This document shows positions 16,272 to 41,857 of a stretch of DNA of 64,000 nt, in pieces. The DNA is taken from the IMG/VR virus record IMGVR_UViG_3300026382_000001. One strand, 5' to 3'. Position 1 is the stretch's first letter; every line of letters begins with the position of its first letter. The position numbers were made by a program, and so were the translations under genes. A model generated the notes under the pieces. It ran no database searches. It was not told where the DNA came from and was given only the letters and a program-made list of their open reading frames with translations. This DNA is from a virus. Lineage: Duplodnaviria; Heunggongvirae; Uroviricota; Caudoviricetes.

Positions 16272-17177
16272 ATGTATTCATATGAAAATATTATATCAAA
16301 ATTTATCGATAAACATGGAAATAAATACGATTATTCTTATGTAGATTATAATAATATGAAGACAAAAATAAAAATTATTTGTCCAATACATGGTGAATTT
16401 TTACAAACCCCAACCGAACATATTAAAGGTGGTTGTAAAAGATGTCATTCGACAAGATTAACAACCTCGGAAGTTAAGGCAAGATTTATTTCTAAACATG
16501 GTGATAAATATAATTATTCTCATGTTATTTATATTAAAAATGATAAAGCTGTAAAAATTTTTTGTAATACGTGTAATCAATTTTTTTTTCAAAAACCAAT
16601 TATCCATTGGTCTGGTGGTGGTTGCACTAAATGTTCTTATAAAAAAAAGAGAATTTCTTGGAAAAAAGATATTAAATTTTTTCAAAAAAAATTTAATAAT
16701 AAATACTGTTATAAATATAATCCCGAAATTGATAAAAAAATATATATTTTTTGTCCGTCTCATGGTTGGTTTACAAGTTTAATAGGTAATCATCGTAAAG
16801 GTATTGGATGCCCTAAATGCTCCAATACAAGAACTCTTAGTAAAGGAGCCACTAAAATAAAAAAATTTTTAGAATCTAATCAAATAAGTTTTGAATTAGA
16901 AAAAAGATTTCCAGATTGCCAAAATGATAAAACATCATATTCTTTACCATTCGATTTTTATTTATCTGATAAAAATATTTTAATAGAATTTGATGGAGAA
17001 TTACATTATAAAAATATATCCTTTTTTGGAGGAAAAGAAGAGTTAAAAAAAATCCAAGATCGTGATAAAATAAAAACGGATTATTGCAAAATAAACCATA
17101 TTAAACTTATTCGAATTCCTTATTGGAATTTTGATAAAATAGAAAAAATATTAAAAGGAGAAATATGTCAAATTTAA
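16272..17177 (+). CDS. homing-endonuclease-like protein (3 zinc-ribbon repeats plus DUF559-like nuclease)
   Basis: KYDYSYVDY...KIICPIHGEF..GGCKRCHS repeats and a C-terminal FDFYLSDKNILIEFDGELHYK..RD.IK..YC..N.I.LIRI. It is a paralog of the ORF at 10650. Confidence 0.55.
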   Translation: MYSYENIISKFIDKHGNKYDYSYVDYNNMKTKIKIICPIHGEFLQTPTEHIKGGCKRCHSTRLTTSEVKARFISKHGDKYNYSHVIYIKNDKAVKIFCNTCNQFFFQKPIIHWSGGGCTKCSYKKKRISWKKDIKFFQKKFNNKYCYKYNPEIDKKIYIFCPSHGWFTSLIGNHRKGIGCPKCSNTRTLSKGATKIKKFLESNQISFELEKRFPDCQNDKTSYSLPFDFYLSDKNILIEFDGELHYKNISFFGGKEELKKIQDRDKIKTDYCKINHIKLIRIPYWNFDKIEKILKGEICQI

Positions 17178-22448: not shown

Positions 22449-23420
22449 ATGGAAAAAATTAAAAAAATTATGGAATTATTAGAAAACGATTATGGTACTG
22501 AAGATAATGAAAAACAAGTCATTGCAAAAAAAGAAATTATTGAGAAGTTATTTCTCACTGTTAAAATGGACCCATTTAATAATATGGACGATGCAAAAAA
22601 AGTTCTTAAAGTAATTAAGCAGTGCCAAAAAATCGCTAAAAAAAATGATTTAATGGATCAACTTGGAGATGTTTTAAAGTTTATGGAAACGATCGTTATT
22701 GAAAAATTAGAAATTAATTTAAAGGAAAATCCAGAACCAGTATTAGATAAAGAAGAAGCTTTAGAAATCAATAATCTTCTTGATGATGTAACCAATTTGG
22801 TAAACAATTTAATGAAAGAAGTATCAAAAGATAGAGATACTGAAGAAGATAAAGACTATGAATGTGATTTAGCCGAATTACCATCTAATGGTAAAACCGA
22901 TAAACCAAGTGGAGTACGTTTATCAAAATTTATGGAAATTGCTTTTATAAAAAATGATAATGAAACTGTATCATTAACTGCTACAAATTTACCAAGCGAA
23001 ATTTCTAAAAAAGAGTTTAAAAAACTTATCAAATATAATGGACTTTGGTTAGATAAAAAAACAGTTCTTAAAGAGGGTAATCATTATATGGGTATAAGAT
23101 TATTGTATTCTAAGTTTCATACCACTATGCTTTTAGCTGATAAAAATGTAAAAGTAAAAACTGATACAGGGGTAATTAATCAAAAATTTGTGCTGGTGCA
23201 GAAAGAAACAGTTAATGGAAAAAGTAAACTTAAAATTGCTAACTTCCTTAATTATGCTGGTATGAAAGTAAAAGACGTTGTAAAAAGTAAAGATATGCGA
23301 AAATTTTTAAAAGAAGTTACTTTTGAGAATGATGTAAATTTAGTACAAGACCAATACTGTATCGATGATCAAAATAACTTTTACCGTATTTGTATCCCAT
23401 TTCAAAGAGAATCTAAATAA
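22449..23420 (+). CDS. hypothetical protein
   Basis: 323-aa ORF. Confidence 0.4.
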   Translation: MEKIKKIMELLENDYGTEDNEKQVIAKKEIIEKLFLTVKMDPFNNMDDAKKVLKVIKQCQKIAKKNDLMDQLGDVLKFMETIVIEKLEINLKENPEPVLDKEEALEINNLLDDVTNLVNNLMKEVSKDRDTEEDKDYECDLAELPSNGKTDKPSGVRLSKFMEIAFIKNDNETVSLTATNLPSEISKKEFKKLIKYNGLWLDKKTVLKEGNHYMGIRLLYSKFHTTMLLADKNVKVKTDTGVINQKFVLVQKETVNGKSKLKIANFLNYAGMKVKDVVKSKDMRKFLKEVTFENDVNLVQDQYCIDDQNNFYRICIPFQRESK

Positions 23421-24163
23421 TGAAAAGTATTGCTATTATTTCTAGTAGTGGTGGTTTAGATTCAAGTACCTTAATTTATAAGGTACTGAATGAAACTAAT
23501 TGGGACGTTGTTCTAGTTAGTTTTAATTATGGTCAGGTTAATAAAGTGGAGCTTATGGCCCAAGAAAAGTTATATAGTATTTTAAAAGAAAGTAAATTTT
23601 CAAATAGAATACTTATGCGAGCGAAATTAAGTATTCCACTTTTTGATGATATTGGGTTAGTAAATATGCAAGGTATTGATGATGCAGATCATGAGTACTA
23701 TACTCCAAGCAGAAATTTATTATTTGGTACTACGGTAGCTAGTTTTGGTGAAGCTATTGCTACTAAGTACGGTTATGATAATGTATTTCTTGGTATGGGT
23801 TTACATAAACATACCGAAGAAGCTTATGGTGGGAAAGGTGAAGGAGAAGTTTCTCAGTATTGGGATATTACTCCAGAATTTGCCAAACGACTTCAAAAAG
23901 TTTTTGATCTTAATGATCAAAAACATATCGAAATTTATGCACCTTATATAAATTCTTATAAAAAGAATATTATTGAGGATGTTGTAAAATACAAGGTACC
24001 GTATAAAAATACTTGGACTTGTTATGAGCCACAAAAGGTATTGGATAATGGAAGAGATATCTATACACCATGTCTAAATTGTGAAGCTTGTATGGAGCGG
24101 GAAATCAATGCAAAAGGAATTATTGAAGATATTAATGATTATAAAATAATTTTAGAATCGTAA
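23420..24163 (+). CDS. queC: 7-cyano-7-deazaguanine synthase QueC
   Basis: PP-loop IAIISSSGGLDSS and a C-terminal Zn-binding CYEP...CLNCEAC cluster. 247 aa. Confidence 0.7.
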   Translation: MKSIAIISSSGGLDSSTLIYKVLNETNWDVVLVSFNYGQVNKVELMAQEKLYSILKESKFSNRILMRAKLSIPLFDDIGLVNMQGIDDADHEYYTPSRNLLFGTTVASFGEAIATKYGYDNVFLGMGLHKHTEEAYGGKGEGEVSQYWDITPEFAKRLQKVFDLNDQKHIEIYAPYINSYKKNIIEDVVKYKVPYKNTWTCYEPQKVLDNGRDIYTPCLNCEACMEREINAKGIIEDINDYKIILES

Positions 24164-24345: not shown

Positions 24346-26922
24346 ATGATTTACAAAAACTTAACGACAGAAGTATTAGAATTAGTAACTGAGAGTATAA
24401 CAGAAGCAAAAGCGAATGGTATTATTGATAACCATCCGGGTATTTTATTAAAAGTTATCTTATCGAAAGATACTATTCTTAGGAATATTCTTGAGGATTT
24501 AGAGATTGATATTAACGGTATTTTTAATACTATTGAAGATCAAATTAAAAATGATCCTATTAAATACGGTGAAGATGCAGATACTTCATTTGGTTCATTC
24601 ACTCCGGAATATCTTAAATTATTCGAGGTCGCTCATGATTTAGCTTTACGAAATCAAGATAAATATTTAGCACTAGATATTTTAATTATTGCTGGAATTA
24701 GTTCTGGTAATTCATTTTTCACTTATCTTGATCAATTTTTAGATCTAGAACTTTTAGAGATGTATCTTAAATCGCTAAGAGGAGATAGAAAAATTAACGA
24801 AAAAAGTTTTAAAGAGCAAAGTTTCTTAACAACTTTTTGTATCAATTTAAATGAAAAATATTTGGCCGGTGAATGCGATTTGGTTCATGGTCGAGTAGAT
24901 GAAATTGATAGAGTGGCGAATATTCTTAGTAAACGTACTAAGAATAATCCTATTTTAGTTGGTGAACCGGGTGTTGGTAAAACGGCTATTGCTGAAGGAA
25001 TGGCAGGTAAAATCGTTAACCATGAAATTGAAAATCTTACCGACGTTATCATCTGGAACCTTGATCTAACAGCTCTTATGAGTAATGCTGGTAAAGATGA
25101 AGTAGCTGGTCGCATGAATGGATTAATTAAAGAGATTCAAAGAAAAAATAAATTTGAAGATTCTAAAATCGTTCTATTCATTGATGAAATTCATTTAATT
25201 GTTGATAATGCTGGTGGAATGGATTTAGCAAATATTCTTAAACCTGCTTTAGCTCGTGGAGAACTTAAAACAATTGGTGCAACTACTACTAAAGAGTATA
25301 ATAAATACTTTGAAAAAGATGCTGCTATTCAACGTCGTTTCCAATTAGTAAAAATTGATGAACCAGATGAAGAACAATCGTTAGTTATTTTAAGAGGACT
25401 TAGAGAAAAAATCGAAGAGTTTCATAAAATCGAAGTAACCGACGAAGCCTTAGTATCAGCGGTAAAATTATCTAAAAGATATATTACTGATAGATTTTTA
25501 CCAGATAAAGCTATAGATCTTTTAGATGAAGCAGCATCTGTTGTAAGTAATTCGCGATTTATTGAAAGTACCGAAATCAAAAACTTAAGATTAAAAATTC
25601 AAGAAATTGAATTTAAAATTAAGGGTATTGAAAAAAGTATAGAAGCTTCCGATAAAAAAAGTTTTATATCTAAACAACAAACTTATTTAGAGGAGCTTAA
25701 TCAACAGTTAGTTACAACCAAAGAAGAACTTGATAAAATGGTTTCTGAATTTCAATTAGCTAAAGAAAATCGTCAATCAATTATGGTACTAAAAAATGAA
25801 ATTAAAAAAGCTGAACAAGAAGCTTTTGAAGCAAAAGCCGAATTAGATTTAGTTAAAGTAATTGAATTGGAAAAAAATATTATTCCAAAATTACTAAAGG
25901 AAATTAAAGAAATTGAATCGGGTATAGTTTCAATTAGTGTTCAAAAAGGAGATATTTCTTCGGTTGTTGAAAATTGGACAGGTATTCCAATGGAAAAAAT
26001 CAAAGAGGAAGATTCGAATGAGAATATTAAAAATATTCTTAACCTTATGAAAGAACGTGTTAAAGGCCAAGATGAAACTCTAGAAGAGATTTCAAAAGCT
26101 ATCCGTAGAAATAGTGCTGGTCTTTCTAAAGAGGGTAAACCAGTTGGTAGTTTTATGTTACTTGGACCAACAGGTACTGGTAAAACAGAAACTGCTAAAA
26201 GTATTGCTGAAATAGTTTTTGGGGATGCTAAAAATATGGTTAGATTCGATATGTCTGAGTTCATGGAACCACACACGGTATCCAAATTTATTGGTAGTCC
26301 TGCTGGTTATGTTGGACATGATGATGGTGGCCAACTTACGAATGCTATTAAACGCAATCCATATTCTTTAATTTTATTCGACGAAATTGAAAAAGCTCAT
26401 CCAAAAATCTTTGATGTACTTTTACAAGTACTTGATGATGGTAGATTAAGAGATGGTAAAGGTCAAGTGGTAGACTTTAGCAATACAATTATTGTATTTA
26501 CTAGTAATATTGGTGGAAGTGATTTAGCTAATATTCCAAATAAAGTCGTACGTGATAAAGAGAAAATGCGTTTACTTCAAGAAACATATAGACCGGAATT
26601 CTTAAATAGATTGGATTGTATTTCAGTTTTTAATAAACTAGATATGGTTAATCTTATTGAAATTCTAAATCGTAATTTAGATACTCTTGCAGAAAAACTT
26701 TGGAAAGATCGTTATATCAATATTATGGTATCGGATGAGTTTAAAGCTCATCTTATCTCAAGTATTGATATAGAAGCGTTTGGTGCAAGACCTCTTAATA
26801 GATTAATTTCATCTGAAATCGAAGATAAAGTAACCGATTTAATTCTCGATGGAATGTTAGAAATTGGTTCTGAAATTATTTTCGAAATGGCGGATGATAA
26901 AATTATAGTCGAAGTAGTATAA
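24346..26922 (+). CDS. clpB: ClpB/Hsp104-type AAA+ disaggregase (two NBDs plus coiled-coil M-domain)
   Basis: NBD1 has GEPGVGKTAIAEGMA, FIDEIH and GATT..EY.KYFEKDAAIQRRFQ. NBD2 has LLGPTGTGKTE, RFDMSEFME, IGSPAGYVGHDDGGQLT and DEIEKAHPKIFDVLLQVLDDGRLRDGKG. No ClpP-docking IGF-type loop is seen. ATG at 24346 with RBS AAGGA is preferred over 24268. Confidence 0.75.
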   Translation: MIYKNLTTEVLELVTESITEAKANGIIDNHPGILLKVILSKDTILRNILEDLEIDINGIFNTIEDQIKNDPIKYGEDADTSFGSFTPEYLKLFEVAHDLALRNQDKYLALDILIIAGISSGNSFFTYLDQFLDLELLEMYLKSLRGDRKINEKSFKEQSFLTTFCINLNEKYLAGECDLVHGRVDEIDRVANILSKRTKNNPILVGEPGVGKTAIAEGMAGKIVNHEIENLTDVIIWNLDLTALMSNAGKDEVAGRMNGLIKEIQRKNKFEDSKIVLFIDEIHLIVDNAGGMDLANILKPALARGELKTIGATTTKEYNKYFEKDAAIQRRFQLVKIDEPDEEQSLVILRGLREKIEEFHKIEVTDEALVSAVKLSKRYITDRFLPDKAIDLLDEAASVVSNSRFIESTEIKNLRLKIQEIEFKIKGIEKSIEASDKKSFISKQQTYLEELNQQLVTTKEELDKMVSEFQLAKENRQSIMVLKNEIKKAEQEAFEAKAELDLVKVIELEKNIIPKLLKEIKEIESGIVSISVQKGDISSVVENWTGIPMEKIKEEDSNENIKNILNLMKERVKGQDETLEEISKAIRRNSAGLSKEGKPVGSFMLLGPTGTGKTETAKSIAEIVFGDAKNMVRFDMSEFMEPHTVSKFIGSPAGYVGHDDGGQLTNAIKRNPYSLILFDEIEKAHPKIFDVLLQVLDDGRLRDGKGQVVDFSNTIIVFTSNIGGSDLANIPNKVVRDKEKMRLLQETYRPEFLNRLDCISVFNKLDMVNLIEILNRNLDTLAEKLWKDRYINIMVSDEFKAHLISSIDIEAFGARPLNRLISSEIEDKVTDLILDGMLEIGSEIIFEMADDKIIVEVV

Positions 26923-26946
26923 AATAATATAATTAAAGGGTTATTT

Positions 26947-27183
26947 ATGGTAAGTTTTAAAAAATTTAAACGACTTGGTTTCAGTGAAATGAGACCAGTT
27001 GTTAAAGATGAAATTAAAGCTGGAACAGAAGCTTTACGTAACCGTAGTATTATGGTTAGTAAAGTTGACGAAAAAGAAGGTTCTCCTAAAGAGGGGGATA
27101 TGATAGCTAGAAATCCAGAAGATCATCTCGATCAGTGGTTAGTAGCTAAAAAATATTTCGAAGAAAATTTTGAGGAGCTTTAA
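26947..27183 (+). CDS. small hypothetical protein
   Basis: 78-aa ORF. Confidence 0.35.
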   Translation: MVSFKKFKRLGFSEMRPVVKDEIKAGTEALRNRSIMVSKVDEKEGSPKEGDMIARNPEDHLDQWLVAKKYFEENFEEL

Positions 27184-27411
27184 ATGGAGTATATAAAACC
27201 TTTACCAGAAGATCAATTAAAACGTTACTTTTGTTCCGGTCTTAGTTTGACTGGAATAAGATAAAAAGATGGTTCTATAAAATGCCCGACCGATTTAAAT
27301 TATTTTTTAAATGATTGGCCAGACGAAATAAATTGTGGTCCAAATACTTATACTTTGGAGAATATACATAAATTCAATAATGGCTTAGAACAAGCTAATT
27401 ATTGCTAAATT
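27184..27411 (+). pseudogene. small ORF interrupted by an in-frame TAA (26 codons, TAA, 49 codons, same frame)
   Basis: MEYIKPLPEDQLKRYFCSGLSLTGIR-TAA-KDGSIKCPTDLNYFLNDWPDEINCGPNTYTLENIHKFNNGLEQANYC* reads in one frame. Confidence 0.25.
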
Positions 27412-27424
27412 AAAAAAAGGAAAT

Positions 27425-28243
27425 ATGATGAGAGAAGTTATCAAACATAGAGGCGCTAAAGTAAAGTTAAGTACATCTGATATAGATGAAATAGTAGAAT
27501 TTCTTACGATTGGTGATGTGACATTTAAAGAATTGGCTAGTACTTATCAAGTACAGATACAATACATTAAAAATATCTTTAATGGTAAAGGTCGTTTTAG
27601 ATATCTTTTAGGAACAGAAAAATATTTTAAAATGCATGAGGCACAACGTAAAATAAAGGAAGAAAAATTGAAAAGAGCTCAACAAATGAATTATTCCAGT
27701 AGTAATCCTACGTCAAATAAAAACGGGAAAAAAACTTTACTTAGTATGTCTCAAGAAGAATTAGATATTCTTTATACAAGATTACATAACGAAAGAGCAA
27801 TTGATTTAATAACTGAATATGGTATTGGTCAATCTCAGTTAAGTAAATTTAAACACGATAAATTTAAATCTATTAAGGGTAATCTTTTAGTTGATGGTAT
27901 TGATGGTATTGATGGTATTGATAAAGAAGTTTCGGTAATGGAAATTACGGAAACTAATGAAGTTAAAGAGGAACTTCTAGATTTAGCTAGAAAAACAACA
28001 GCTGCTAAAAAAATTAGTATTCTTGAAGTACTTCGCAATCATTTGGATTGTGTTGGTAAATCAAGATTACATGATTTATTAATAAGCGAAGAGTATATTA
28101 AACATGCGGTACATAATCCATTTGTAAATAATATGCAAACTGGTTTATTAATTTATGAAGTACTTCATTTAATTACTAGTTATAGTACTTTTGAAATTGG
28201 TATGTTTCTCGAAGAGATTAAAGAGGCTAATTATGAAAGTTAA
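27425..28243 (+). CDS. hypothetical protein with an internal DGIDGIDGID repeat
   Basis: 272 aa. Contains (GATGGTATT)x3 at 27893-27919. Confidence 0.4.
   Translation: MMREVIKHRGAKVKLSTSDIDEIVEFLTIGDVTFKELASTYQVQIQYIKNIFNGKGRFRYLLGTEKYFKMHEAQRKIKEEKLKRAQQMNYSSSNPTSNKNGKKTLLSMSQEELDILYTRLHNERAIDLITEYGIGQSQLSKFKHDKFKSIKGNLLVDGIDGIDGIDKEVSVMEITETNEVKEELLDLARKTTAAKKISILEVLRNHLDCVGKSRLHDLLISEEYIKHAVHNPFVNNMQTGLLIYEVLHLITSYSTFEIGMFLEEIKEANYES
27893..27919 (+). repeat. (GATGGTATT)x3 microsatellite-like tandem repeat inside the CDS (encodes DGIDGIDGI)
   Basis: Read from the sequence. Confidence 0.8.
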
Positions 28244-29042
28244 TATTAATTATATATCTGATCTAAATTTAGATCAGATATCGTTTGATGGTAATATGGA
28301 GGAATATATTGAAAGTATTCTTCCAAATATCAAAGGAGATATTTTAATTATCGCTGGTAATCTAGGTTCGGATTTAAACAAAAATCTTTTATTTTTAAAA
28401 AAAATAAGTCCGTATTATCATAAAATATTTTATGTAACTGGACCAAAAGAAATGTATTTGAATGACGAACATTATTCATTTAATTCAAATTCCTTTGAAA
28501 AATTAAATACTTTAAAACGTATATTAAATAATTTTCCGGAATTTGAAAATATTGTGCTTTTAGATGGTTTTGATAAACAGCGAATAGTTTTAGAAGAATA
28601 TGATAATCTTAGTATTTCTGGACTAAGTATGTTTTGGGATTATTCTGGATTACCTTTAAATTTAACCCACCGGGAAATAAACGATCTTTATAAAGCTACC
28701 GTTAAAGATTATAAATTTATTAATTTTGGTACTGATCATCGTACTGAGAAATTAAATAAATTAAATCCATCTAAATTATTTAAAAATAATTTTAAAAGAC
28801 TTGATAAATTAGAACCGGTCGATATAATGGTTACATATTACTGTCCTCTTAATACGGAAGAATCTTTTCAATGTTTTGATGGAGAATACCATATAAAACG
28901 TTTACAGCCAAAAACGTGGATTTTTGGTGGAATAATGAAGTTTGAGGATACTTTTTATAATAATACCTTATTGACAAATGCTTTTAATCTTAAAAATAAA
29001 ATTAAAACTTTAACAATAAAAACCTCATCAAAGGATATTTAA
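28233..29042 (+). CDS. degenerate paralog of the calcineurin-like phosphoesterase at 32528 (catalytic motifs lost)
   Basis: Same N-terminal I.YISDL.LD architecture as the 32528 ORF, but GD has become GN (IIAGNLGSD) and GNHD has become GPKE. ATG at 28233 with RBS GAGG is preferred over 28191. Confidence 0.45.
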   Translation: MKVNINYISDLNLDQISFDGNMEEYIESILPNIKGDILIIAGNLGSDLNKNLLFLKKISPYYHKIFYVTGPKEMYLNDEHYSFNSNSFEKLNTLKRILNNFPEFENIVLLDGFDKQRIVLEEYDNLSISGLSMFWDYSGLPLNLTHREINDLYKATVKDYKFINFGTDHRTEKLNKLNPSKLFKNNFKRLDKLEPVDIMVTYYCPLNTEESFQCFDGEYHIKRLQPKTWIFGGIMKFEDTFYNNTLLTNAFNLKNKIKTLTIKTSSKDI

Positions 29043-29326
29043 TGAAATTGTTAACAAACCGAGGTGAATGGTTGATAGCGGTGATTATGAGTTTAATCAT
29101 AGTAGTCGCCTTTCAGAGTATTCAATTACAATATTTAAAAAAGTCGTATTTGAAAAATATCCAAATTTTGGCAGATAATCAAAAAACAATTATTAAAAAA
29201 GAAACCAAAATATTCGAATTGATTTCTAAAATTTTAACTTATCAAACCAAAATTATTTTAAAACATGAAAAAATTTTAGATTCGAAAGATAAAATAAAAA
29301 AGAAAAGGAGTAAGAATGAAAGATAA
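29042..29326 (+). CDS. N-terminally membrane-anchored small coiled-coil protein
   Basis: One TM segment (WLIAVIMSLIIVVAF) followed by a K/E-rich helix. Confidence 0.4.
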   Translation: MKLLTNRGEWLIAVIMSLIIVVAFQSIQLQYLKKSYLKNIQILADNQKTIIKKETKIFELISKILTYQTKIILKHEKILDSKDKIKKKRSKNER

Positions 29327-29984
29327 TTTAAATTCTTCTGGAGAATCACGTATGGAAATATTACGATTAAAGGAAGATATATTAAAATTAAAGAAAAAAA
29401 TTAATTTTTACAAATATGATCAATTAACTGGATTAAAAACTAGAAATGATTTTGTTTGGGATTTTAATGATTTGATTTTAAAAGATAAACCATTTATGGT
29501 ACATCTATGCGATATTAATAATTTAAAATCTATTAATACCAAATATGGATATGTTAATGGTGGGGATACTTTAATAAAAAAAATGGCCAAAAAATTAAAA
29601 ACGATTTTTGATCATAGTTTTATTTATCGTATTGGTGGTGATGAATTTGTGGTATTTGATTTTAATTTAAATGAATATAATGATGATAATAATGAATTAT
29701 CCGTTGTATCTAAAGTAATTGAACCGATTTCACACATGGATATTGGGACAGAATCCGAAATAGATATTAATAATATTCTTATGGAAATGGATAAAGATAT
29801 GTTAAAATTAAAAATTAATTTGGATCGCCGTGGAACCAGACAAATTATAAAAGTGCATCATGGTTTAGATATGTGTTTAAATATTGATGGGTATATTGAT
29901 GTAAACTTAAAATATAAAGCTGGTAAACTTAAATTAGAACATAATGGTGATGAATCAGTTATTTATTTAAAAGAAAAGGATTAG
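29316..29984 (+). CDS. GGDEF-domain protein (putative diguanylate/nucleotidyl cyclase) with an N-terminal coiled-coil
   Basis: ..LCDINNLKSINTKYGYVNGGD.. and an intact ..YRIGGDEFVVF.. signature. Confidence 0.55.
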   Translation: MKDNLNSSGESRMEILRLKEDILKLKKKINFYKYDQLTGLKTRNDFVWDFNDLILKDKPFMVHLCDINNLKSINTKYGYVNGGDTLIKKMAKKLKTIFDHSFIYRIGGDEFVVFDFNLNEYNDDNNELSVVSKVIEPISHMDIGTESEIDINNILMEMDKDMLKLKINLDRRGTRQIIKVHHGLDMCLNIDGYIDVNLKYKAGKLKLEHNGDESVIYLKEKD

Positions 29985-29986
29985 AA

Positions 29987-30274
29987 ATGACGTTTGGTAA
30001 AGTAGTAGAGTTAATGAAAATGGATAGTAGTATTAAAGTACAACGTAGTGGTTGGAATGGAAAAGGAATGTATCTTTTTTACGTTCGCCCTGAAACCATT
30101 ATAGTTACTCAAGGTCATCCTTTTAATCGAGTATTTATCGAAGGTACTGAAATTCAAATACAATCATATATTGCTATGAAAACTGCTCAGGATACTATTG
30201 TTCCTTGGTTAGCTTCGCAAACGGATATGTTAGCAGATGATTGGGAATTATTTGGAGGAGCGAAAAGTGAGTAA
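29987..30274 (+). CDS. DUF2829-like small protein (the family that contains the anti-Thoeris sponge Tad2)
   Basis: 95 aa with MTFGKVVELMK....RSGWNGKGMYLF........LADDWELF. The GWNGKG and C-terminal DWE pattern matches what I recall of DUF2829. Confidence 0.45.
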   Translation: MTFGKVVELMKMDSSIKVQRSGWNGKGMYLFYVRPETIIVTQGHPFNRVFIEGTEIQIQSYIAMKTAQDTIVPWLASQTDMLADDWELFGGAKSE

Positions 30275-30686
30275 TTTAAAATATCCGATTCTTAGAGAAC
30301 GTTGGATTAAACTTAGAAAAAATAAAGATAAATCCTCGGAAGATATTATTTTACAAAAGCTTCTTGGATTAATTATCGATAAAACTGCCAAGTTGGCTAA
30401 AGAAGATAAATCAGAGAATTTAACAAAGTATGTTGATAAAGCTATTAAAAGCGAATACAAACAACAGTTAGACTCGTTAAGTAAAGGGGTTAAATGTGAA
30501 ACGGAAATTAAACTTTTAGAAGATATGTTACCAAAAACATTATCCGAAGAAGAAACGGTTAATATTATTTTAGATATTTTAGCTAGAAATAATAAACCAA
30601 ATATGGGATTAGTGATGAAGGAATTAAGAACGATTCCAAATTTAGATATGAAACTAACGTCTAACTTAGTTAAAAAATTATTATAA
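30267..30686 (+). CDS. YqeY/GatB-C-terminal-domain-like protein
   Basis: ..MLPKTLSEEETVNIILDIL.....NMGLVMKEL......KLTSNLVKKLL resembles the YqeY consensus (YLPKQLSEEE..., ...LVKELL). A GTG start at 30267 with RBS GGAGGAG is proposed. Confidence 0.45.
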   Translation: MSNLKYPILRERWIKLRKNKDKSSEDIILQKLLGLIIDKTAKLAKEDKSENLTKYVDKAIKSEYKQQLDSLSKGVKCETEIKLLEDMLPKTLSEEETVNIILDILARNNKPNMGLVMKELRTIPNLDMKLTSNLVKKLL

Positions 30687-30696
30687 GGAAAGAATT

Positions 30697-31008
30697 ATGA
30701 AAAAAGTTATAAAGATATTTACAGGATTATTAATAATAGGTGCAAGTTTATTTGCGGATAGTTCGTCTGGTAAAAATAAATGGAATAATGGTTCAATAGA
30801 TATTGAAACAAGTTTAAATAATGTTTACATTTACGATAAAAAAAATTATTTATTAAAAAACCAAAACCAGTACGAAATGGAAGCAGGTTTACGAGATAGT
30901 ATATATAAAAAACCAAATTTATGTAAATTGGTTAATACTAAACCAGCTATTTTTGTATATATTTATTCAGATGGTGCATTAACAATTACAATAGATGGAT
31001 GTAAATAA
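30697..31008 (+). CDS. small secreted protein (signal peptide)
   Basis: MKKVIKIFTGLLIIGASLFADSS N-terminus. Confidence 0.4.
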   Translation: MKKVIKIFTGLLIIGASLFADSSSGKNKWNNGSIDIETSLNNVYIYDKKNYLLKNQNQYEMEAGLRDSIYKKPNLCKLVNTKPAIFVYIYSDGALTITIDGCK

Positions 31009-31322
31009 TGGAAATTACGATACAATGGTTTTGGTTAATTGGAGTGGTCGTTATGACAATCGAAGCTTTTTTAGCTTGGAAGTGGTTCAATACTGGCTTT
31101 TCAAAAAAATGGGGATATACTTTACTAGTAACTATTATACTAGTAATTATAACTGGAAGAATGGTTAAAATTGAGCAAATTACTAAACGTGATTTTAATA
31201 TTTTACAAACTCAAAATATAGAATCTCATAAAAAGTTACCACCTAAAGTAACGGACGATTCTTTTATCGAGAATGATAAAAATACCAAAAGTATTGATAT
31301 CAATTTTGTTAATGCTCATTAG
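31008..31322 (+). CDS. small membrane protein (2 TM)
   Basis: Two hydrophobic segments: WFWLIGVVVMTIEAFLAW and LLVTIILVIITG. Confidence 0.4.
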   Translation: MEITIQWFWLIGVVVMTIEAFLAWKWFNTGFSKKWGYTLLVTIILVIITGRMVKIEQITKRDFNILQTQNIESHKKLPPKVTDDSFIENDKNTKSIDINFVNAH

Positions 31323-31331
31323 GGATATTTA

Positions 31332-31559
31332 ATGAAGTATCTATACAAAACTTTTATAATTGGATTAATATTTATTGGATATGTATTTAACATATATTTT
31401 CTAACAGTTGATCCAAAAATAAGAGATTACCAATGGGTTAATAAAGTTGGGATAGTGATTATTCCACTTGGATCAGTTATGGGTTTAGTTTATGCACTTG
31501 ATAATATCAAATGTGTTTCATATTGTAAGAGTAAAAATATAAAAACAGAGGAAAAATAA
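31332..31559 (+). CDS. small membrane protein (2 TM)
   Basis: Two hydrophobic segments: FIIGLIFIGYVFNIYFL and IVIIPLGSVMGLVYAL. Confidence 0.4.
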   Translation: MKYLYKTFIIGLIFIGYVFNIYFLTVDPKIRDYQWVNKVGIVIIPLGSVMGLVYALDNIKCVSYCKSKNIKTEEK

Positions 31560-32444
31560 ATGAGAAAAGTTTTAAAAAAATTAATGTTCGTAGTGAGTTT
31601 AGGTTTAGCTATGATAGTAATGACTGGTTGTAATGAACAAGTACCAGCTGGTTATGGTGGAAAGATTCTAGGTAAAAATGGGTGGCAACCAGAGATTTAC
31701 CCACCTTCTAAAGTTTGGGTAGATACTACTTTTACTTTTACTCCAGAAAAATTATTTCTTTATCAAACAACTACACAAAAATTTGTACAACCAATCAAAA
31801 TTCTTTTAAAAGATAAGTTGACACTTAATGCCGAAATAGTATTCCGTGGTAGAATAACTACAAATAAAAAAATCATCAATGGTTTATTTAATGATATGCC
31901 AATGAATGACAATATCGTTCAAACCTCAGAAGTATATAATACTTATGGTAAAATGATTGTACTTAATACGGCTCGAGAAGTAATTTCTAAATATAATGTC
32001 GACGAAGTTAATAAAAATTATGCTCGTATTACTATTGAATTATATGAAGCTATTAAGCCCAAGTTAGAAGGTTTACCTATTCAAATTTCAGATGTGACAT
32101 TGGGAAATATTCAATATCCTAAAATAGTAACGGAAGCTATTGAAAAAGCTAAACAACGTAGAATGGCTATCGAACAGGAAAAAGCTCAAGTACAAATCGA
32201 ATTGGAAAAAGCTAAAGGTAGAGAACAGGTTGCTAAAGCGGAATATCGTATTAAAATGTTAGAAGCAAAACGAATACGCGATTATAATAAAATGATTGAG
32301 CAAGGGGTTACACCAAATCTTCTTAAACTTCGTAAGTTAGAAGTACAAGAAAAAATGGTGGAAGCTATTAAAGAAAATAAAAACGTGGTTTATATGCCTA
32401 TGGATATGATGAATGGTAGCACAAACATGAGAATTATTAAATAG
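31560..32444 (+). CDS. SPFH/band-7 (prohibitin/HflK-like) lipoprotein
   Basis: Lipobox MIVMTGC after the signal peptide. The C-terminal helical region (AIEKAKQRRMAIEQEKAQVQIELEKAKGREQVAKAEYRI) is typical of SPFH proteins. Confidence 0.5.
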   Translation: MRKVLKKLMFVVSLGLAMIVMTGCNEQVPAGYGGKILGKNGWQPEIYPPSKVWVDTTFTFTPEKLFLYQTTTQKFVQPIKILLKDKLTLNAEIVFRGRITTNKKIINGLFNDMPMNDNIVQTSEVYNTYGKMIVLNTAREVISKYNVDEVNKNYARITIELYEAIKPKLEGLPIQISDVTLGNIQYPKIVTEAIEKAKQRRMAIEQEKAQVQIELEKAKGREQVAKAEYRIKMLEAKRIRDYNKMIEQGVTPNLLKLRKLEVQEKMVEAIKENKNVVYMPMDMMNGSTNMRIIK

Positions 32445-32466
32445 CTGGTTGTCGTGAACTAGTTTA

Positions 32467-32500
32467 GAGATAACTATTAATAGTTATCTCTTTTTTATTT
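32467..32500 (+). terminator. perfect 24-bp palindrome GAGATAACTATTAATAGTTATCTC followed by TTTTTTATTT (AGTTATC/GATAACT family member acting as a terminator-like element)
   Basis: A hairpin plus U-tract lies 22 nt after the SPFH gene stop. Confidence 0.5.
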
Positions 32501-32527
32501 ATATATTAAATATAAAAAAGGATAAAT

Positions 32528-33406
32528 ATGAAAGAATTAAGAATAGATTATATAAGTGATTTGCATTTAGATTTTTGGATGAAAGAAGTTAATCCTCAAT
32601 CACCAAAGTTTCAAAAACAATTACAAGAATTTATAAATATGATTCAACCAAAACCAGGTAAAGTTTTAATTCTTGCTGGAGACCAAGGGCATTATTTCTC
32701 TCAGGATTCAGCATTACTTCTGGAACTTAAGAAATACTATGAAAATATTTTAATAGTTCCAGGTAATCATGATATGTATTTAATTAGTAACAAACAGGAA
32801 AAAAAATATAACTGGAATTCTAAAAATAGACTTTTAGAAATGAAAAGATTTTGTAATGAACATGATGGTTTATATTTTATGGATGGTGATGTAATATCTA
32901 TAGATGGTTTTAAAATTGGTGGTATTGGTATGTGGCATGATTGGTCTTATGGAAAAGAACTTGGTTATTCGGATACCGAAATGGAAGAGATTTGGAAACG
33001 GGTTATGAATGATGCTAATTTAATATTTCAAGATTCGAAAAAGAATTATAATATTTCTTTCGGTTATGGGGGAAAAGAAAAAATAGTTCATTTCAAACCT
33101 ATGGAATTATATAAAGAGTACCGAGAAAAATTAGATAAGATGGAACCATGCCATTTAATGTTTAGTCATTATGGACCAATTATTCCAGATAATATTGAGG
33201 AAGATTATAAAGAAGATGAAGTAACTTCATTTTATTATTTTGATGGAGCTTCGGATATTTTTAGATTAAAACCACAGTACTGGATACATGGTCATACACA
33301 TTCAGTATATGAAAGTAACCGTTCTGGTACTAAAGTTATTACCAACCCACTTGGATATCCAAGTGAAAATAGTTATGTAACTATTAAAAGTATTTATTTA
33401 AAATAA
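32528..33406 (+). CDS. calcineurin-like metallophosphoesterase
   Basis: DLHLD, LAGDQGH, PGNHDMY and HGHTH motifs. 292 aa. Confidence 0.6.
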   Translation: MKELRIDYISDLHLDFWMKEVNPQSPKFQKQLQEFINMIQPKPGKVLILAGDQGHYFSQDSALLLELKKYYENILIVPGNHDMYLISNKQEKKYNWNSKNRLLEMKRFCNEHDGLYFMDGDVISIDGFKIGGIGMWHDWSYGKELGYSDTEMEEIWKRVMNDANLIFQDSKKNYNISFGYGGKEKIVHFKPMELYKEYREKLDKMEPCHLMFSHYGPIIPDNIEEDYKEDEVTSFYYFDGASDIFRLKPQYWIHGHTHSVYESNRSGTKVITNPLGYPSENSYVTIKSIYLK

Positions 33407-33416
33407 AGGATTAAAA

Positions 33417-33614
33417 TTGAAAAAAGAATATTTTTATTTTTACTGCGTAGCAATATTTGAAGATGAAAAACAATTAATACTGGATGGTACGATTACCACC
33501 AATAGTCCTATAAAATCATCAGAAGATTTTAAAGAGTTATCTATCCGATTAAAAAATAATTATAAAACCAAAAATTTAGTAATTATGAATTTAAATTTAT
33601 TATTTGAGGATTAA
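33417..33614 (+). CDS. small hypothetical protein (TTG start)
   Basis: 65-aa ORF. Confidence 0.3.
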   Translation: MKKEYFYFYCVAIFEDEKQLILDGTITTNSPIKSSEDFKELSIRLKNNYKTKNLVIMNLNLLFED

Positions 33615-33618
33615 AAAA

Positions 33619-34167
33619 ATGAAGAATAAAATAAGAGAAGTTATTTACGAAGAGATAATTAAAGGACAACATCACGTTTTAACAAAATTGATTTTAAATA
33701 ATAAATTATCCCATTATGAATATTATGTGGGTATTCCTAAAGAACATCCATATTATAGAAAGAGTGATAATATGAAATCTAGATGGTTTAAAGAACCGGA
33801 TAAAAGTCAAGAATATTTATACAAAATAAGTAAATCAATCTCTTTTAATAATACACAAAATCTTAGAAAAGTAGTTAGGAGCTTGAAGGAACCTTTTAGA
33901 ATTAAAAATATAAATGATTTTAATTTTGATAGTGTTGTTGCTTTGGAACATGCTTGGTTATCTTTTAGTGGAAACTTCTACGAGTTTCTAAAAGAGGATT
34001 ATTGTTATTATGGTGGTGGCATGTATGTACCAAGTTTTGGAGATGATTCTTGTAAAAAATCTTCAGAAATAGCTTTAAAATTACTTGGGAATCATTTTTT
34101 AAAGGTACATGATATTAGCCCGAAATATTCCGATTTTAAAATAAACTTTGAAGGAAGGGAAGGATAG
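33619..34167 (+). CDS. hypothetical protein
   Basis: ATG at 33619 with RBS GAGGA. The track start at 33604 is also possible. Confidence 0.4.
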   Translation: MKNKIREVIYEEIIKGQHHVLTKLILNNKLSHYEYYVGIPKEHPYYRKSDNMKSRWFKEPDKSQEYLYKISKSISFNNTQNLRKVVRSLKEPFRIKNINDFNFDSVVALEHAWLSFSGNFYEFLKEDYCYYGGGMYVPSFGDDSCKKSSEIALKLLGNHFLKVHDISPKYSDFKINFEGREG

Positions 34168-34170
34168 TAA

Positions 34171-34578
34171 TTGAAATTATACGAATTAAAAATACATAAA
34201 CGTGATGATTATTTTTATAACCATGATACATTTAGTGTTAAACTTATTAACGTTATTGAAACTATTAAATGTGAATACACTTATAAAGAAAATAAAAAAA
34301 TAATTAGAAATAATACTTTTTTAAAATATAAAATAAAAAATGGTAACGATATAGAAACTATTGATGTTACGGATGGAACTTATTTTAAAACGTTAGACGA
34401 ACTTCTAGAATATTTTAAAAAAAAATATTTTAAAGTTCATTCGGATAAATATTATGATTATTATATGAATATTGATAATAAAGATTCTATCACGTGTGTA
34501 TCAAATTTATCGGCTAAGGGATTAGGATTAACCGAAGGTTATATAGATTTACAAAAAAAATTAAAGGAGAATAAATGA
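34171..34578 (+). CDS. hypothetical protein (TTG start)
   Basis: 135-aa ORF. Confidence 0.35.
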   Translation: MKLYELKIHKRDDYFYNHDTFSVKLINVIETIKCEYTYKENKKIIRNNTFLKYKIKNGNDIETIDVTDGTYFKTLDELLEYFKKKYFKVHSDKYYDYYMNIDNKDSITCVSNLSAKGLGLTEGYIDLQKKLKENK

Positions 34579-35543
34579 AAAAAGTAAAAAGTTTAAATGA
34601 ACTTATAAATGGAGAATATTATTGGATGCATAGTAAAATGATTTTTGATAATGGTTTTAGAAGTTCACAAATGTTAATACACCGTTATCGAAATCTTGAA
34701 GATAGTAGAGCTTATTTTGGGGACCGTATTTGGGCATTTGATGGTAATAACCAAGCTATGGAAAAATATGATATTTATGGACCAGTTCCAAAACCATTTA
34801 GAGGTGATTTAAGCAATCCAAATAATTCACAATCTTCGGAATTTGAAAAAGTATTTGGAAATAATGAAGAATTGGATTTAATGATTGCTCAAATTAGAGA
34901 TAGTTTTACAGAAGAAATTACAAAATATATTCCGGAGAGTAGCGCTTATAGTTCACCTGAATGTGTTTTATTTGCTCTTTATAAAAGTATTGAAGATAAG
35001 TTATCAACTTCAAAAGAGATAACTAAAGGTACTGATAGTTTACTATCAATAGTTGACGTCTCAAAAGAAAATAAATTTGAATTTTTTTGGGGAGGAATAT
35101 TTTCACAATGGGCTAAATATAATTTTACCGATGAATATGGAGTAATCTATAATTGTGCTGAACAGTACATGATGGCTCAAAAAGCAAAAGTTTTTCAAGA
35201 TAAGGAAACGTATGATAAAATTATGGCTAGTACTAATCCAAAAGAACAGAAAGCTCTTGGTAGAAAAATAAAAAATTTTAATGATGAAACTTGGGATAAA
35301 TATAAAATAGATGTTGTTCGAACTGGAACGTATTTAAAATTTTTGCAACATCCAGAATTAAAAGAATATCTTTTAAGTACTGGTAATAAGGTAATAGTAG
35401 AAGCTTCTCCGTATGATAAAGTTTGGGGAATTGGTCTCAGTGAAACAGATCCATTAAGATTAGATCCAAAAAATTGGAAAGGGCAAAATCTGCTTGGTTT
35501 TATTATAATGCAGGTAAGGGAACAATTAAAGGAGATTAAATGA
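34575..35543 (+). CDS. NADAR (YbiA/DUF1768)-domain protein with an N-terminal extension of about 150 aa
   Basis: The C-terminal half has FWGG.FSQW....F......YNCAEQYMMAQKA..F.D......IM.S..P.EQK.LGR.I.NF....W.........G....F.QHPEL...LL.TG...IVEASP.D..WGIGL. Confidence 0.55.
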   Translation: MKKVKSLNELINGEYYWMHSKMIFDNGFRSSQMLIHRYRNLEDSRAYFGDRIWAFDGNNQAMEKYDIYGPVPKPFRGDLSNPNNSQSSEFEKVFGNNEELDLMIAQIRDSFTEEITKYIPESSAYSSPECVLFALYKSIEDKLSTSKEITKGTDSLLSIVDVSKENKFEFFWGGIFSQWAKYNFTDEYGVIYNCAEQYMMAQKAKVFQDKETYDKIMASTNPKEQKALGRKIKNFNDETWDKYKIDVVRTGTYLKFLQHPELKEYLLSTGNKVIVEASPYDKVWGIGLSETDPLRLDPKNWKGQNLLGFIIMQVREQLKEIK

Positions 35544-36316
35544 GATTTATGCAATTAGGAAACGGTGGTGGATTAGATCCAACAGCTACGAATAGTAGTT
35601 TTTTAGTCCAGGTAAAAGATAATGAATATCTATTGTTTGATTGTGGTTTTAATATTATGCAAAGACTTATAGAAATTGAAAATAATCCTTCAAATGAATT
35701 TAATATTGGAATGATTAAATATGTATATGTTTCACATATACATGATGACCATGTCGGGAATTTAGAAACATTAATGTTTTGGAATTATTTTAAAAATAAT
35801 TCCAGTATTACTTTTCTTTATGCAAATGATGAAACGGAAGAATACTTTAAAAATAAATTATTTCCAAAATTATACAATGGTGGTAAAATTGATACAAATT
35901 CTGTTATTAACTCAACAATGATAAAATTATATCATGGTTCTACACAAGGTTATAATATAAAAAAAGATATCAAACATATACAAAGTACTAATGTTTCTAT
36001 ATTGGCATTATATAAAACATTTCATGGTGATTGTCAATCAAATGGTTTGGTTATTATTAATAATATAACTAATACTGCTTTGGTTATAAGTGGAGATACA
36101 AAGGCATCACTGCACTTAGAAGAAGAGATATTATATAAATTAAAAGATTGTAAATCTTCTATAATTTATCATGATTATAGCGATTGGGATTGTCCTAGTA
36201 AAAATGTTCATGCTTGCAAAACAGATTTTGAATGTGAGTATTCTGAAGATTTCCAAAATCAAATTATAAAATATCATGATAATGGCGATTTTATAACCGA
36301 TTGGCAAAATTGGTAA
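35540..36316 (+). CDS. metallo-beta-lactamase-fold hydrolase
   Basis: HxHxDH motif (VSHIHDDHVGN), plus a downstream HGD and a C-terminal H. Confidence 0.5.
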   Translation: MRFMQLGNGGGLDPTATNSSFLVQVKDNEYLLFDCGFNIMQRLIEIENNPSNEFNIGMIKYVYVSHIHDDHVGNLETLMFWNYFKNNSSITFLYANDETEEYFKNKLFPKLYNGGKIDTNSVINSTMIKLYHGSTQGYNIKKDIKHIQSTNVSILALYKTFHGDCQSNGLVIINNITNTALVISGDTKASLHLEEEILYKLKDCKSSIIYHDYSDWDCPSKNVHACKTDFECEYSEDFQNQIIKYHDNGDFITDWQNW

Positions 36317-41302: not shown

Positions 41303-41857
41303 ATGAAACCAGAAACAAAACAAAAATTCTTAAATGAAAAAATAGGTTATGTTGATGTGTTATTCGATTCAGAGTCTAATAGATTAATGAATCAAATAAT
41401 TAAAGATCTTGGATTAAAGAAAGATTTTAATGATGATTTTCATTGTACTATTTCATATTCTAAAAAAGATTTTAATTTTATATTACCTGGTGAAAAGTTA
41501 GATAATATAAAAATTAAAGATAATAAAGTACATGTTGATATAAACGAAAATTGTACTATTAAAGGTTTTGGTAATTTTAAAACAAATGAAGGTTTAAATT
41601 TACATATTGAATTAGATTGTCCTTTTTGTAAATCTGAATTTAAAAGATGTGTTAAAGCCGGAGCAGTATATGATTATCCAGAATATATACCACATATTAC
41701 TCTAATGTATAATTGTTCTTTACCAGGAGAAGACAAAGGTATACCGAAAGAGTATTTTAAAAATACTCTTAATAAGTACATTGGGAAAAAAATAAAGATA
41801 ATTAAAGAACGTAAACAAAAACTTAATAAAAATTGGGTTAAAGAATCCAAAAAATAA
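41303..41857 (+). CDS. 2H-phosphoesterase superfamily protein (LigT/cyclic phosphodiesterase-like)
   Basis: Two H-x-T/S-x motifs about 85 aa apart: FHCTISY and PHITLMY. Confidence 0.45.
   Translation: MKPETKQKFLNEKIGYVDVLFDSESNRLMNQIIKDLGLKKDFNDDFHCTISYSKKDFNFILPGEKLDNIKIKDNKVHVDINENCTIKGFGNFKTNEGLNLHIELDCPFCKSEFKRCVKAGAVYDYPEYIPHITLMYNCSLPGEDKGIPKEYFKNTLNKYIGKKIKIIKERKQKLNKNWVKESKK

Follow-up and report, generated by a model that had tools for sequence, protein, structure and literature searches.

The stretch of DNA analysed here (64,000 nt; hereafter the window) comes from a Caudoviricetes phage, IMG/VR virus record IMGVR_UViG_3300026382_000001, and carries a short gene for a GGDEF-domain protein, a predicted diguanylate cyclase, followed almost immediately by a gene of the Tad2 (DUF2829) family, a predicted sponge for glyco-cyclic ADP-ribose (gcADPR), the signal of the Thoeris defence system. 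We describe the two genes and argue that they are probably independent of one another in function. The following features were recognised in the pair.

29316-29984, forward strand: stand-alone GGDEF gene, 222 amino acids (aa), predicted diguanylate cyclase (PF00990, TIGR00254, AlphaFold2 (AF2) and Foldseek, key residues)
29352-29417, forward strand: N-terminal helix, aa 13-34, a predicted dimerising coiled-coil stalk that runs directly into the GGDEF domain (translation, AF2)
29412-29831, forward strand: GGDEF catalytic domain, aa 33-172 (alignments A1 and A3; HMMER alignment to the T. maritima diguanylate cyclase 4urs)
29832-29981, forward strand: lineage-specific C-terminal extension, aa 173-222, ending in the conserved V-I-Y-L-K-E-K (predicted local distance difference test score (pLDDT) in the AF2 model below 60)
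29987-30274, forward strand: Tad2-family gene, 95 aa, of the short-insertion form, predicted gcADPR sponge and thus anti-Thoeris protein (PF11195)

The GGDEF gene has an AGGAG Shine-Dalgarno sequence 8 nt before its start, which overlaps the upstream open reading frame (ORF) by 11 nt. Its product was recognised by the Pfam GGDEF profile PF00990 (E = 7e-13; 49.1 bits against a cutoff of 23.8), in an alignment that covers profile positions 2-87 of 161 only, and by the NCBIfam profile TIGR00254 (40.6 bits, the cutoff being 37.4; positions 7-120 of 168). Both scores lie above the curated cutoffs, which bears out the domain call made in an earlier sequence-only reading of this DNA. That reading had also pointed to an intact GGDEF signature and a metal-binding Asp, and both are present in the translation, as 'YRIGGDEF' and 'CDINNLKSIN', with G107-F111 and D66 conserved. 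The key residues of the domain are D66, N74, D84, R105, the G107-G-D-E-F111 motif, D159, K166 and R171/R172. When 14 phage and cellular GGDEF domains were aligned (A3), D35, R43, D66, L70, N74, G83, D84, R105, I106, G108, D109, E110 and K166 proved invariant, and G107, F111 and D159 nearly so. We take D66 to be the metal ligand (PleD D327), N74 and D84 to be the guanine readers (PleD N335 and D344) and K166 to be a phosphate ligand (PleD K442); the other phosphate-binding residue of the last helix in PleD is R446, from which R171/R172 (the 'DRR' motif, kept in the phage family) is offset by one residue. Judged by its residues, the protein keeps everything known to be required for the synthesis of cyclic di-GMP (c-di-GMP) and looks catalytically competent. 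The RxxD inhibitory site (I-site) is absent, with F98-D-H-S101 at positions -9 to -6 from the first Gly of the motif, which predicts that product inhibition should not be expected. The protein has no sensor domain either.

The same residues bear on the nature of the product. GGDEF-fold enzymes can switch base specificity through single residues, and in the window protein one extra residue precedes the specificity Asp (G-Y-V-N-G-G-D, compared with the canonical G-H-x-x-G-D), so that one might imagine an enzyme of the Hypr-GGDEF kind making 3',3'-cyclic GMP-AMP (3',3'-cGAMP), cyclic di-AMP (c-di-AMP) or another nucleotide. We consider this highly improbable. Hypr enzymes of the GacA type carry a Ser at the position of the guanine-specifying Asp, a hallmark that is lacking here, as D84 is invariant in both A1 and A3; since D84 and the guanine-specifying Asn are kept, with the Asn74/Asp84 pair invariant, the protein is not Hypr-like. 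Moreover, any cGAMP would be expected to be degraded or bound by Acb1 and Acb4 proteins that the phage itself appears to encode (see below).

In the AF2 model (pLDDT 72.6; alignment of 9 sequences), a helix at residues 6-31 is followed by the palm core of the domain, and the hydrophobic residues of the N-terminal helix (I15, L18, I22, L25, I29 and Y32) show the 3-4 spacing of a heptad repeat. A Foldseek comparison of this model with solved diguanylate cyclases gave a probability of 1.0 and template modelling scores (TM-scores, target-normalised) of 0.55-0.66, the top structural match being a fusion of the GCN4 zipper to the WspR GGDEF domain (3i5c), with SiaD, SadC, DgcR and the coiled-coil-GGDEF protein DgcB (6ttr) among the others. 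On the strength of the sequence and the model, we predict that the short coiled coil holds two GGDEF domains together as a dimer. The coiled-coil cyclases of known structure (3i5c, C. crescentus DgcB 6ttr, SadC 4wxo and DgcR 6zxb) share with the window protein a helical stalk that leads into a GGDEF domain with the same catalytic residues. They differ from it in sequence (14-25% identity), whereas the window protein is phage-encoded, lacks a receiver or sensor domain and an I-site, and has a shorter, divergent alpha3-beta4 region.

Full-length homologues of the GGDEF protein number three (P0002-P0004, 53-59% identity), all of them from syntenic phages, and the C-terminal extension was found in these and the window protein only. 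The next relatives are stand-alone GGDEF proteins of 150-200 aa. Similar short GGDEF genes are present in 17 IMG/VR contigs and in a few cultured phages (Bordetella phages FP1 and MW2; Pseudomonas phages PC1, Rocky and Aergia), where they match PHROG 5594. Phage-encoded diguanylate cyclases are rare, with a GGDEF match of any kind in 21 of 50,697 phage records, and the literature searched held no functional characterisation or demonstrated role of any phage GGDEF protein. Like the window protein, the short phage proteins (PHROG 5594; for instance FP1 gp39 and PC1_015) consist of an N-terminal helix and a domain with an intact GGDEF motif, in about 150-200 aa, and are encoded amid early or accessory genes; an alignment to the first half of the Pfam profile only is common to every one of them that was examined. 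The window protein differs from FP1 gp39, PC1_015 and their kin in sequence (~30-35% identity), in its 50-aa extension of its own lineage and in its setting, a jumbo-phage counter-defence island with Tad2 adjoining. We regard it as a new member of the short phage GGDEF proteins that resembles coiled-coil cyclases.

The GGDEF gene is under purifying selection, with a ratio of nonsynonymous to synonymous substitution rates (dN/dS) of 0.13-0.33 in the catalytic half and 0.33-0.78 in the C-terminal extension, compared with 0.06 in the ClpB gene; the ratios are approximate only, since dS approaches saturation. Outside the clade of syntenic phages, the closest GGDEF homologue is P0005 (locus L282, 1782-2863), from a contig of 28% GC with many small ORFs on the same strand. 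On this contig, the GGDEF gene (178 aa) is overlapped at its start by an HD-GYP gene of 181 aa ('HHEKLNGSGYP'), which by sequence would place a c-di-GMP maker beside a c-di-GMP breaker. The presence of an HD-GYP gene next to the P0005 gene supports c-di-GMP as the molecule relevant to the family. Clustering of ORFs over the 17 viral GGDEF loci revealed no neighbour family that is common beyond the clade.

The second gene of the pair encodes a protein that matched PF11195 (Tad2-like) at profile positions 1-72 of 73 (E = 1.7e-23), and five solved Tad2 chains (8v3e, 9eib, 8kbi from HgmTad2, 8sme from SPO1 Tad2, and 8wjd) matched it with E values of 8e-15 to 7e-11, so that the sequence-only reading was right in assigning it to the DUF2829/Tad2 family. 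In HgmTad2, gcADPR sits in a pocket formed by W21, N22, G23, M76, A78, V84, W87, L88, S90, T92 and D93 (Li et al., PMC10680739), and cyclic dinucleotides occupy another pocket within an insertion of 35-41 aa, formed by R31, P32, D34, L36, K46, S47, F70, T71 and N85 (PMC10680739). HgmTad2 binds c-di-GMP at picomolar affinity, and the affinities of HgmTad2 and SptTad2 range from picomolar to nanomolar; SPO1 Tad2, the insertion of which measures 24 aa, did not bind any cyclic dinucleotide (PMC10680739). Of the eleven residues that form the HgmTad2 gcADPR pocket, the window protein has ten unchanged (W23, N24, G25, M64, V72, W74, L75, S77, T79 and D80), and the remaining one, A78, is replaced by T66. 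Its insertion (P35-S60) is 26 aa long, compared with 41 aa in HgmTad2 and 24 aa in SPO1 Tad2, and of the residues that mark the cyclic-dinucleotide-binding subclass (HgmTad2, SptTad2 and SaTad2) only R34 is kept, S47 and N85 falling in gaps and F70 being replaced by I58. Because the gcADPR pocket is conserved while the insertion is short and S47, F70 and N85 are missing, the protein is predicted to be a gcADPR sponge without a c-di-GMP site of the HgmTad2 type.

In this respect it is of the SPO1 type. SPO1 Tad2 (8sme, 8wje) and ModTad2 (8v3e, 9eib) resemble it in length (88-96 aa), in the gcADPR pocket and in a short insertion after beta2 (E about 1e-13 to 1e-15), with an identity of about 40-45%; the difference is that ligand binding is only predicted for the window protein. 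HgmTad2 (AcrIIA7) and SptTad2, by comparison, belong to the same family and have the gcADPR pocket, and the equivalents of R31 and P32 are present in the window protein; they differ from it in their cyclic-dinucleotide insertion of 41 aa as opposed to 26 aa, and in S47, N85 (gapped here) and F70 (Ile here). All the Tad2 copies in the clade are of the short-insertion form, which was seen in L007, L008, L269 and L271, and in L015 as well. The length of the Tad2 insertion offers a fast first check on any claim that a Tad2 protein binds c-di-GMP.

The two genes lie on the same strand, each with a purine-rich ribosome-binding site. The tight junction described by the sequence-only reading is there, although the spacer is 2 nt (TAG-aa-ATG) and not 3. 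In two related loci the genes come closer still: the GGDEF stop and the Tad2 start overlap by 1 nt in L007, and the genes overlap by 11 nt in L008; the order GGDEF-Tad2-YqeY is kept in both. Since the pair recurs with a tight junction in related but independent assemblies, the juxtaposition is real and no accident of assembly. Such a junction, and a protein family in which HgmTad2 and SptTad2 bind c-di-GMP at picomolar to nanomolar affinity, would fit a maker and its binder, in which Tad2 binds the product of the GGDEF protein, as a buffer or store or as a decoy-plus-sponge unit. The sequence-only reading had proposed a maker beside a binder, a decoy with its sponge, or a signalling pair along these lines, and had suggested that co-occurrence in other phages be checked.

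When this was done, the association largely dissolved. No GGDEF gene was found within 6 kb of the 80 viral Tad2 loci surveyed (796 kb in all), and no Tad2 gene near 80 cellular or 80 metagenomic GGDEF loci (0/160 together) or next to GGDEF in the cultured phages FP1 and PC1 (0/2). Among the 17 viral GGDEF loci, one represents a lineage in which Tad2 is a pseudogene, and Tad2 lies within 6 kb in 1 of the 16 others. This is L015, a 227-kb contig with a Tad2 domain one gene upstream of GGDEF, a proximity that could be counted in favour of a maker-binder pair; when the clade membership of L015 was probed with topoisomerase, this single-protein scan retrieved only a sister contig of 96% identity.

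Within the clade, the lineage of P0002 has a Tad2 pseudogene directly after an intact GGDEF gene (L003, 5666-5806; identical in L004, L005, L006 and L009). The remnant reads MTFGKAIDLMKLDPSIKF*REG*NGKGLYIFYVRAE/DWEIFQKTQ*, and its lesions, a TAA stop, a TGG-to-TGA change at a conserved Trp and an in-frame internal deletion of 144 nt, are the same in four independent samples. The GGDEF gene beside the pseudogene has a dN/dS of 0.20-0.27. L269 (ClpB 83% identical) has the catalytically dead phosphoesterase gene described below followed by YqeY, with GGDEF absent from the island and a longer Tad2 elsewhere in it. In L271 (ClpB 66%), the order is active phosphoesterase-GGDEF-DUF7205-QueC-ThyX-YqeY-Tad2, with GGDEF and Tad2 four genes apart, and L273 (ClpB 59%) and L275 (57%) have neither gene, L275 carrying the anti-Thoeris sponge Lockin. 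The clade thus shows all four states of presence and absence of GGDEF and Tad2. Neither of the marks of a conserved two-gene module, co-occurrence beyond one lineage and joint gain and loss, was found. These distributions, together with a 26-aa insertion where 35-41 aa are needed, the loss or replacement of S47, F70 and N85 and the short form of every Tad2 in the clade, speak against the several pairing proposals, and we consider a maker-binder unit quite improbable. We conclude that GGDEF and Tad2 have been gained, lost and inactivated independently while sharing a hot-spot island and probably one transcript. Their adjacency should not be taken as a functional pair, and the pairing defines no system.

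The island in question occupies window positions 24346-36316, and its borders are conserved while its inside is variable, measuring 2.4-9.4 kb across relatives.

24346-26922, forward strand: ClpB-like AAA+ chaperone gene, the conserved left border of the island
36368-38425, forward strand: SbcC/Rad50-like ATPase gene, the conserved right border of the island

Its cargo in the window comprises Tad2, GGDEF, NADAR, Band_7 and metallo-beta-lactamase (MBL)-fold genes. In L269 there are instead a Tad2 with a zinc-ribbon N-terminus and a radical-SAM gene, in L273 thioredoxin and Gp157, and in L275 Lockin and CHAP. The cargo diverges fast: between the window and its sisters, core proteins are 91-96% identical, compared with 67-71% for Tad2 and 53-59% for GGDEF. 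The presence of Lockin in L275 indicates that the clade faces Thoeris. Two further predicted counter-defence genes lie in the window beyond the island.

105-431, forward strand: Acb4-family sponge (PF13876, E = 3e-30)
41303-41857, forward strand: Acb1-family 2H phosphoesterase (PF23474, E = 2e-20)

By these matches, the phage carries predicted anti-CBASS (cyclic oligonucleotide-based anti-phage signalling system) proteins besides its predicted anti-Thoeris protein. Acb1 leaves cGG (c-di-GMP) uncleaved (PMC10680739), and Acb4 homologues avoid binding c-di-GMP. Since the tested members of the Acb1 and Acb4 families and of the short Tad2 form ignore c-di-GMP, a signal of this kind made by the phage would survive the phage's own counter-defence arsenal.

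Putting these observations together, we favour, at a probability of roughly 0.6, an explanation in which the window holds two functionally independent accessory genes in a reshuffled ClpB-SbcC island: a constitutive diguanylate cyclase that acts on the c-di-GMP physiology of the host, and an unrelated anti-Thoeris sponge. The genes probably share a transcript, and their translation may be coupled. Once the cyclase is expressed, its coiled coil would join two GGDEF domains, and the dimer would convert GTP to 3',3'-c-di-GMP continuously and, with neither sensor nor I-site, without regulation, so that the infected cell would pass into a high-c-di-GMP state. The cell might then become less motile, adhere more or make more matrix, and display altered surface structures or receptors, and the phage might benefit from the exclusion of superinfecting phages or from an infected cell kept within a dense population of susceptible hosts. 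Tad2 would separately sequester gcADPR. Manipulation of host c-di-GMP physiology was one of three possibilities raised by the sequence-only reading, and it is the best supported of them. The phage cyclase is well suited to a test, being a minimal protein that lacks both sensor and feedback site, evolves under purifying selection and is encoded in a counter-defence island of a phage with Tad2, Acb1, Acb4 and NADAR genes. Its role would tell whether the main lifestyle signal of the host serves viruses as a tool of takeover.

Several observations weigh against this explanation. The first concern the domain itself, the C-terminal half of which is divergent: the Pfam alignment stops at profile position 87 of 161, and the AF2 model (pLDDT and alignment depth as above) has no clear helix where alpha3 is expected, residues 116-127 forming a loop. 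From the model we had considered a truncated GGDEF domain with alpha3 deleted; this was dropped, as the gap in A3 relative to cellular domains amounts to 7 residues only, the segment from F111 to D159 being shorter than theirs by that number. We read the partial Pfam match as divergence rather than truncation, and the alpha3 region stays uncertain. The divergence could also be that of a non-catalytic protein, a degenerate nucleotide receptor or scaffold that acts through its C-terminal extension, which is lineage-specific, fast-evolving and modelled with low confidence; in addition, a phosphoesterase paralogue next door has lost its catalytic motifs, so that pseudo-enzymes do occur in the operon. 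Yet the catalytic and substrate-binding residues are invariant across the family, distant members included, and the spacing from F111 to D159 is close to canonical. In degenerate GGDEF receptors it is typically the GGDEF motif that is lost and the RxxD site that is retained; the window protein shows the reverse pattern. A non-catalytic role is for these reasons unlikely.

The second group of observations concerns the company and the pace of evolution of the gene. Evolution much faster than that of its neighbours, and a C-terminal extension that is unexplained, would be more in keeping with a protein caught in an arms race than with a gene that simply tunes host physiology. In five lineages (the window, L007, L008, L271 and L015, with a rearranged order in L015), no more than 3 kb separates GGDEF from Tad2, which exceeds random placement; we attribute this to the shared hot-spot island, though some functional linkage is possible. 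Moreover, the window lineage differs from L269 by a block of three genes, orf94-GGDEF-Tad2, which could have moved together. Finally, the only clue to the host on which the cyclase would act, a similarity of ClpB described below, is a weak hint.

Another possibility is that the GGDEF protein is a counter-defence enzyme, the product of which jams or pre-occupies host immune receptors or refills a 'decoy' pool and so silences Panoptes-like guards. Panoptes and a second guard system rely on constitutive minimal cyclases, the product of which is drained by phage sponges; the authors of the Panoptes work explicitly anticipate a phage counter-measure. The refilling of a decoy pool would explain why the gene stands beside a sponge gene. 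A counter-defence role in general would suit the variable island bearing anti-Thoeris sponges (Tad2 here, Lockin in L275), the fast evolution of the protein (53-59% identity as against 91-96% for the core, and dN/dS up to 0.78 in the C-terminal part) and the five-lineage proximity to Tad2. OptS, the mCpol protein of Panoptes, is likewise a minimal palm-domain cyclase, sensor-less, constitutive and functionally tied to phage sponges. It differs from the window protein in being host-encoded, nearly without a GGDEF motif, and coupled to a 2TM-beta effector; the known decoys made by mCpol proteins are 2',3'-c-di-AMP and 3',2'-cGAMP, whereas a canonical guanine-specific GGDEF protein is expected to form 3',3' linkages. 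With its canonical motif and its place in a phage genome the window protein is not of the Panoptes type, and PADLOC models gave no relevant match for the GGDEF gene or its neighbours. The adjoining short-insertion Tad2, with no cyclic-dinucleotide binding predicted, should not trigger a guard in the first place; GGDEF persists where Tad2 is dead, and in most phages with a GGDEF gene its vicinity is free of sponge genes. A counter-defence role is in our view unlikely, as is its more specific form, in which a flood of c-di-GMP, or the C-terminal extension, would silence or jam an immune pathway such as a guard that watches cyclic-dinucleotide pools for sponges and nucleases (Tad2, Acb4 and Acb1). 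Were it true, the GGDEF protein would be an instance of the 'anti-anti-anti-defence' anticipated by the Panoptes authors, and its placement in a sponge-bearing island would be functional.

The remaining features of the island include genes that keep company with GGDEF or with Tad2 across the clade.

26947-27183, forward strand: p78, a protein of 78 aa, directly after ClpB
28233-29042, forward strand: calcineurin-like phosphoesterase paralogue with all catalytic motifs lost (alignment A6)
29042-29326, forward strand: small ORF of 94 aa (orf94) with one predicted membrane helix and a helical Lys-rich tail, between the dead phosphoesterase and GGDEF
30267-30686, forward strand: YqeY/GatB-like gene, 139 aa, GTG start, PHROG 1460, overlapping the Tad2 stop by 8 nt
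32466-32491, forward strand: terminator-like hairpin after the Band_7 gene, the only one in 26.5-33 kb (consensus scan; one match is about the chance expectation)

YqeY adjoins Tad2 in the window, L007, L008 and L271 (in reversed order), and was truncated together with the decay of Tad2 in L003; Tad2 has in YqeY a more constant neighbour than in GGDEF. On the other side, the dead phosphoesterase is the conserved upstream neighbour of GGDEF in the clade and is 73-78% identical between lineages. In A6, its motifs have changed from DxH to DLN, from GD to GN and from GNH to GPK, and GHxH is lost; window 32528-33406 serves as a comparison. The GGDEF-adjacent homologue in L271 (10763-11584) keeps every motif, and L269, where GGDEF is absent, has the dead form. 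The dead phosphoesterase may be a ligand-binding pseudo-enzyme. The 94-aa ORF is present in the window, L003 and L007 and absent in L008.

The family of p78 has at least 180 members, highly conserved and 70-80 aa long, that share the motif SEMRP..GE..VSIS..D..NGSPKxGDMIARNPxxHxDQWLVAKKYFExNFE, and searches of Pfam, PHROG, PDB sequences and Foldseek gave no match for p78. It follows ClpB in the clade, with an occurrence also at L269 11638-12090; in unrelated phages (L276-L280, 4001-4240) it is one gene away from Lockin, and in L015 (4460-5194) it forms the N-terminal part of a fusion with a Tad2 domain. Because of this fusion, and by the reasoning that Tal et al. (PMC12265669) apply to fusions, we propose p78 as a candidate sponge or anti-defence family. 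Together with the dead phosphoesterase, it may prove more novel than the GGDEF-Tad2 finding.

Downstream of YqeY, three small ORFs (103, 104 and 75 aa; 30697-31559, forward strand) with predicted signal peptides or membrane helices precede the Band_7/SPFH gene (31560-32444). This block is missing from the P0002 lineage and partly from L007. The hairpin that follows it is a plausible end of the co-directional array that holds GGDEF and Tad2, and promoter-like sites around the locus were no commoner than in shuffled sequence.

As to the genome at large, the window has a GC content of 24-31% and a strand switch near 45 kb, and encodes, besides the genes named so far (ClpB, the SbcC-like ATPase, NADAR and the MBL-fold hydrolase), a type II topoisomerase, a fragment of a family-B polymerase and ThyX. 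The same GGDEF protein is carried on contigs of up to 281 kb, relatives lie on contigs of 200-280 kb, and one relative contig is labelled as a hydrothermal-vent metagenome. The source is a jumbo phage of roughly 280 kb and 26% GC from metagenomes of the hydrothermal-vent type. No tRNA genes were found in the window, and an Rfam scan of it, c-di-GMP riboswitches included, gave nothing at the gathering threshold. Compared with cultured phages by blastn, the locus matched only an 80-nt stretch of Tad2 in Bacillus and Staphylococcus phages, with no close relative.

The nearest cellular homologues of ClpB are those of Helicobacter and Campylobacter (41-43% identity), which, allowing for the sampling bias towards C. 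jejuni, gives a weak hint of a host among the Campylobacterota. A scan of genome contigs for the host with the GGDEF alignment returned only distant, partial GGDEF genes of the Clostridia type (at most 46% identity), and no prophage copy.

Homologues of QueD/PTPS, GTP cyclohydrolase I (FolE) and QueC are encoded at 431-1033, 2921-3673 and 23420-24163 (forward strand), a set that suggests 7-deazaguanine modification of the phage DNA; 6764-7663 goes with them, as does ThyX. Three paralogous ORFs (10650-11540, 16272-17177 and 63569-64000) all match the same ORF of L011, and a DUF4379 treble-clef zinc finger is present in one; they have the look of dispersed genes akin to those for homing endonucleases. 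One of them sits between the polymerase fragment and the genes downstream of it, and another between two topoisomerase subunit genes. The ORF at 12354-12785 (forward strand) matched DUF6884 strongly and over the full length (E = 4e-39).

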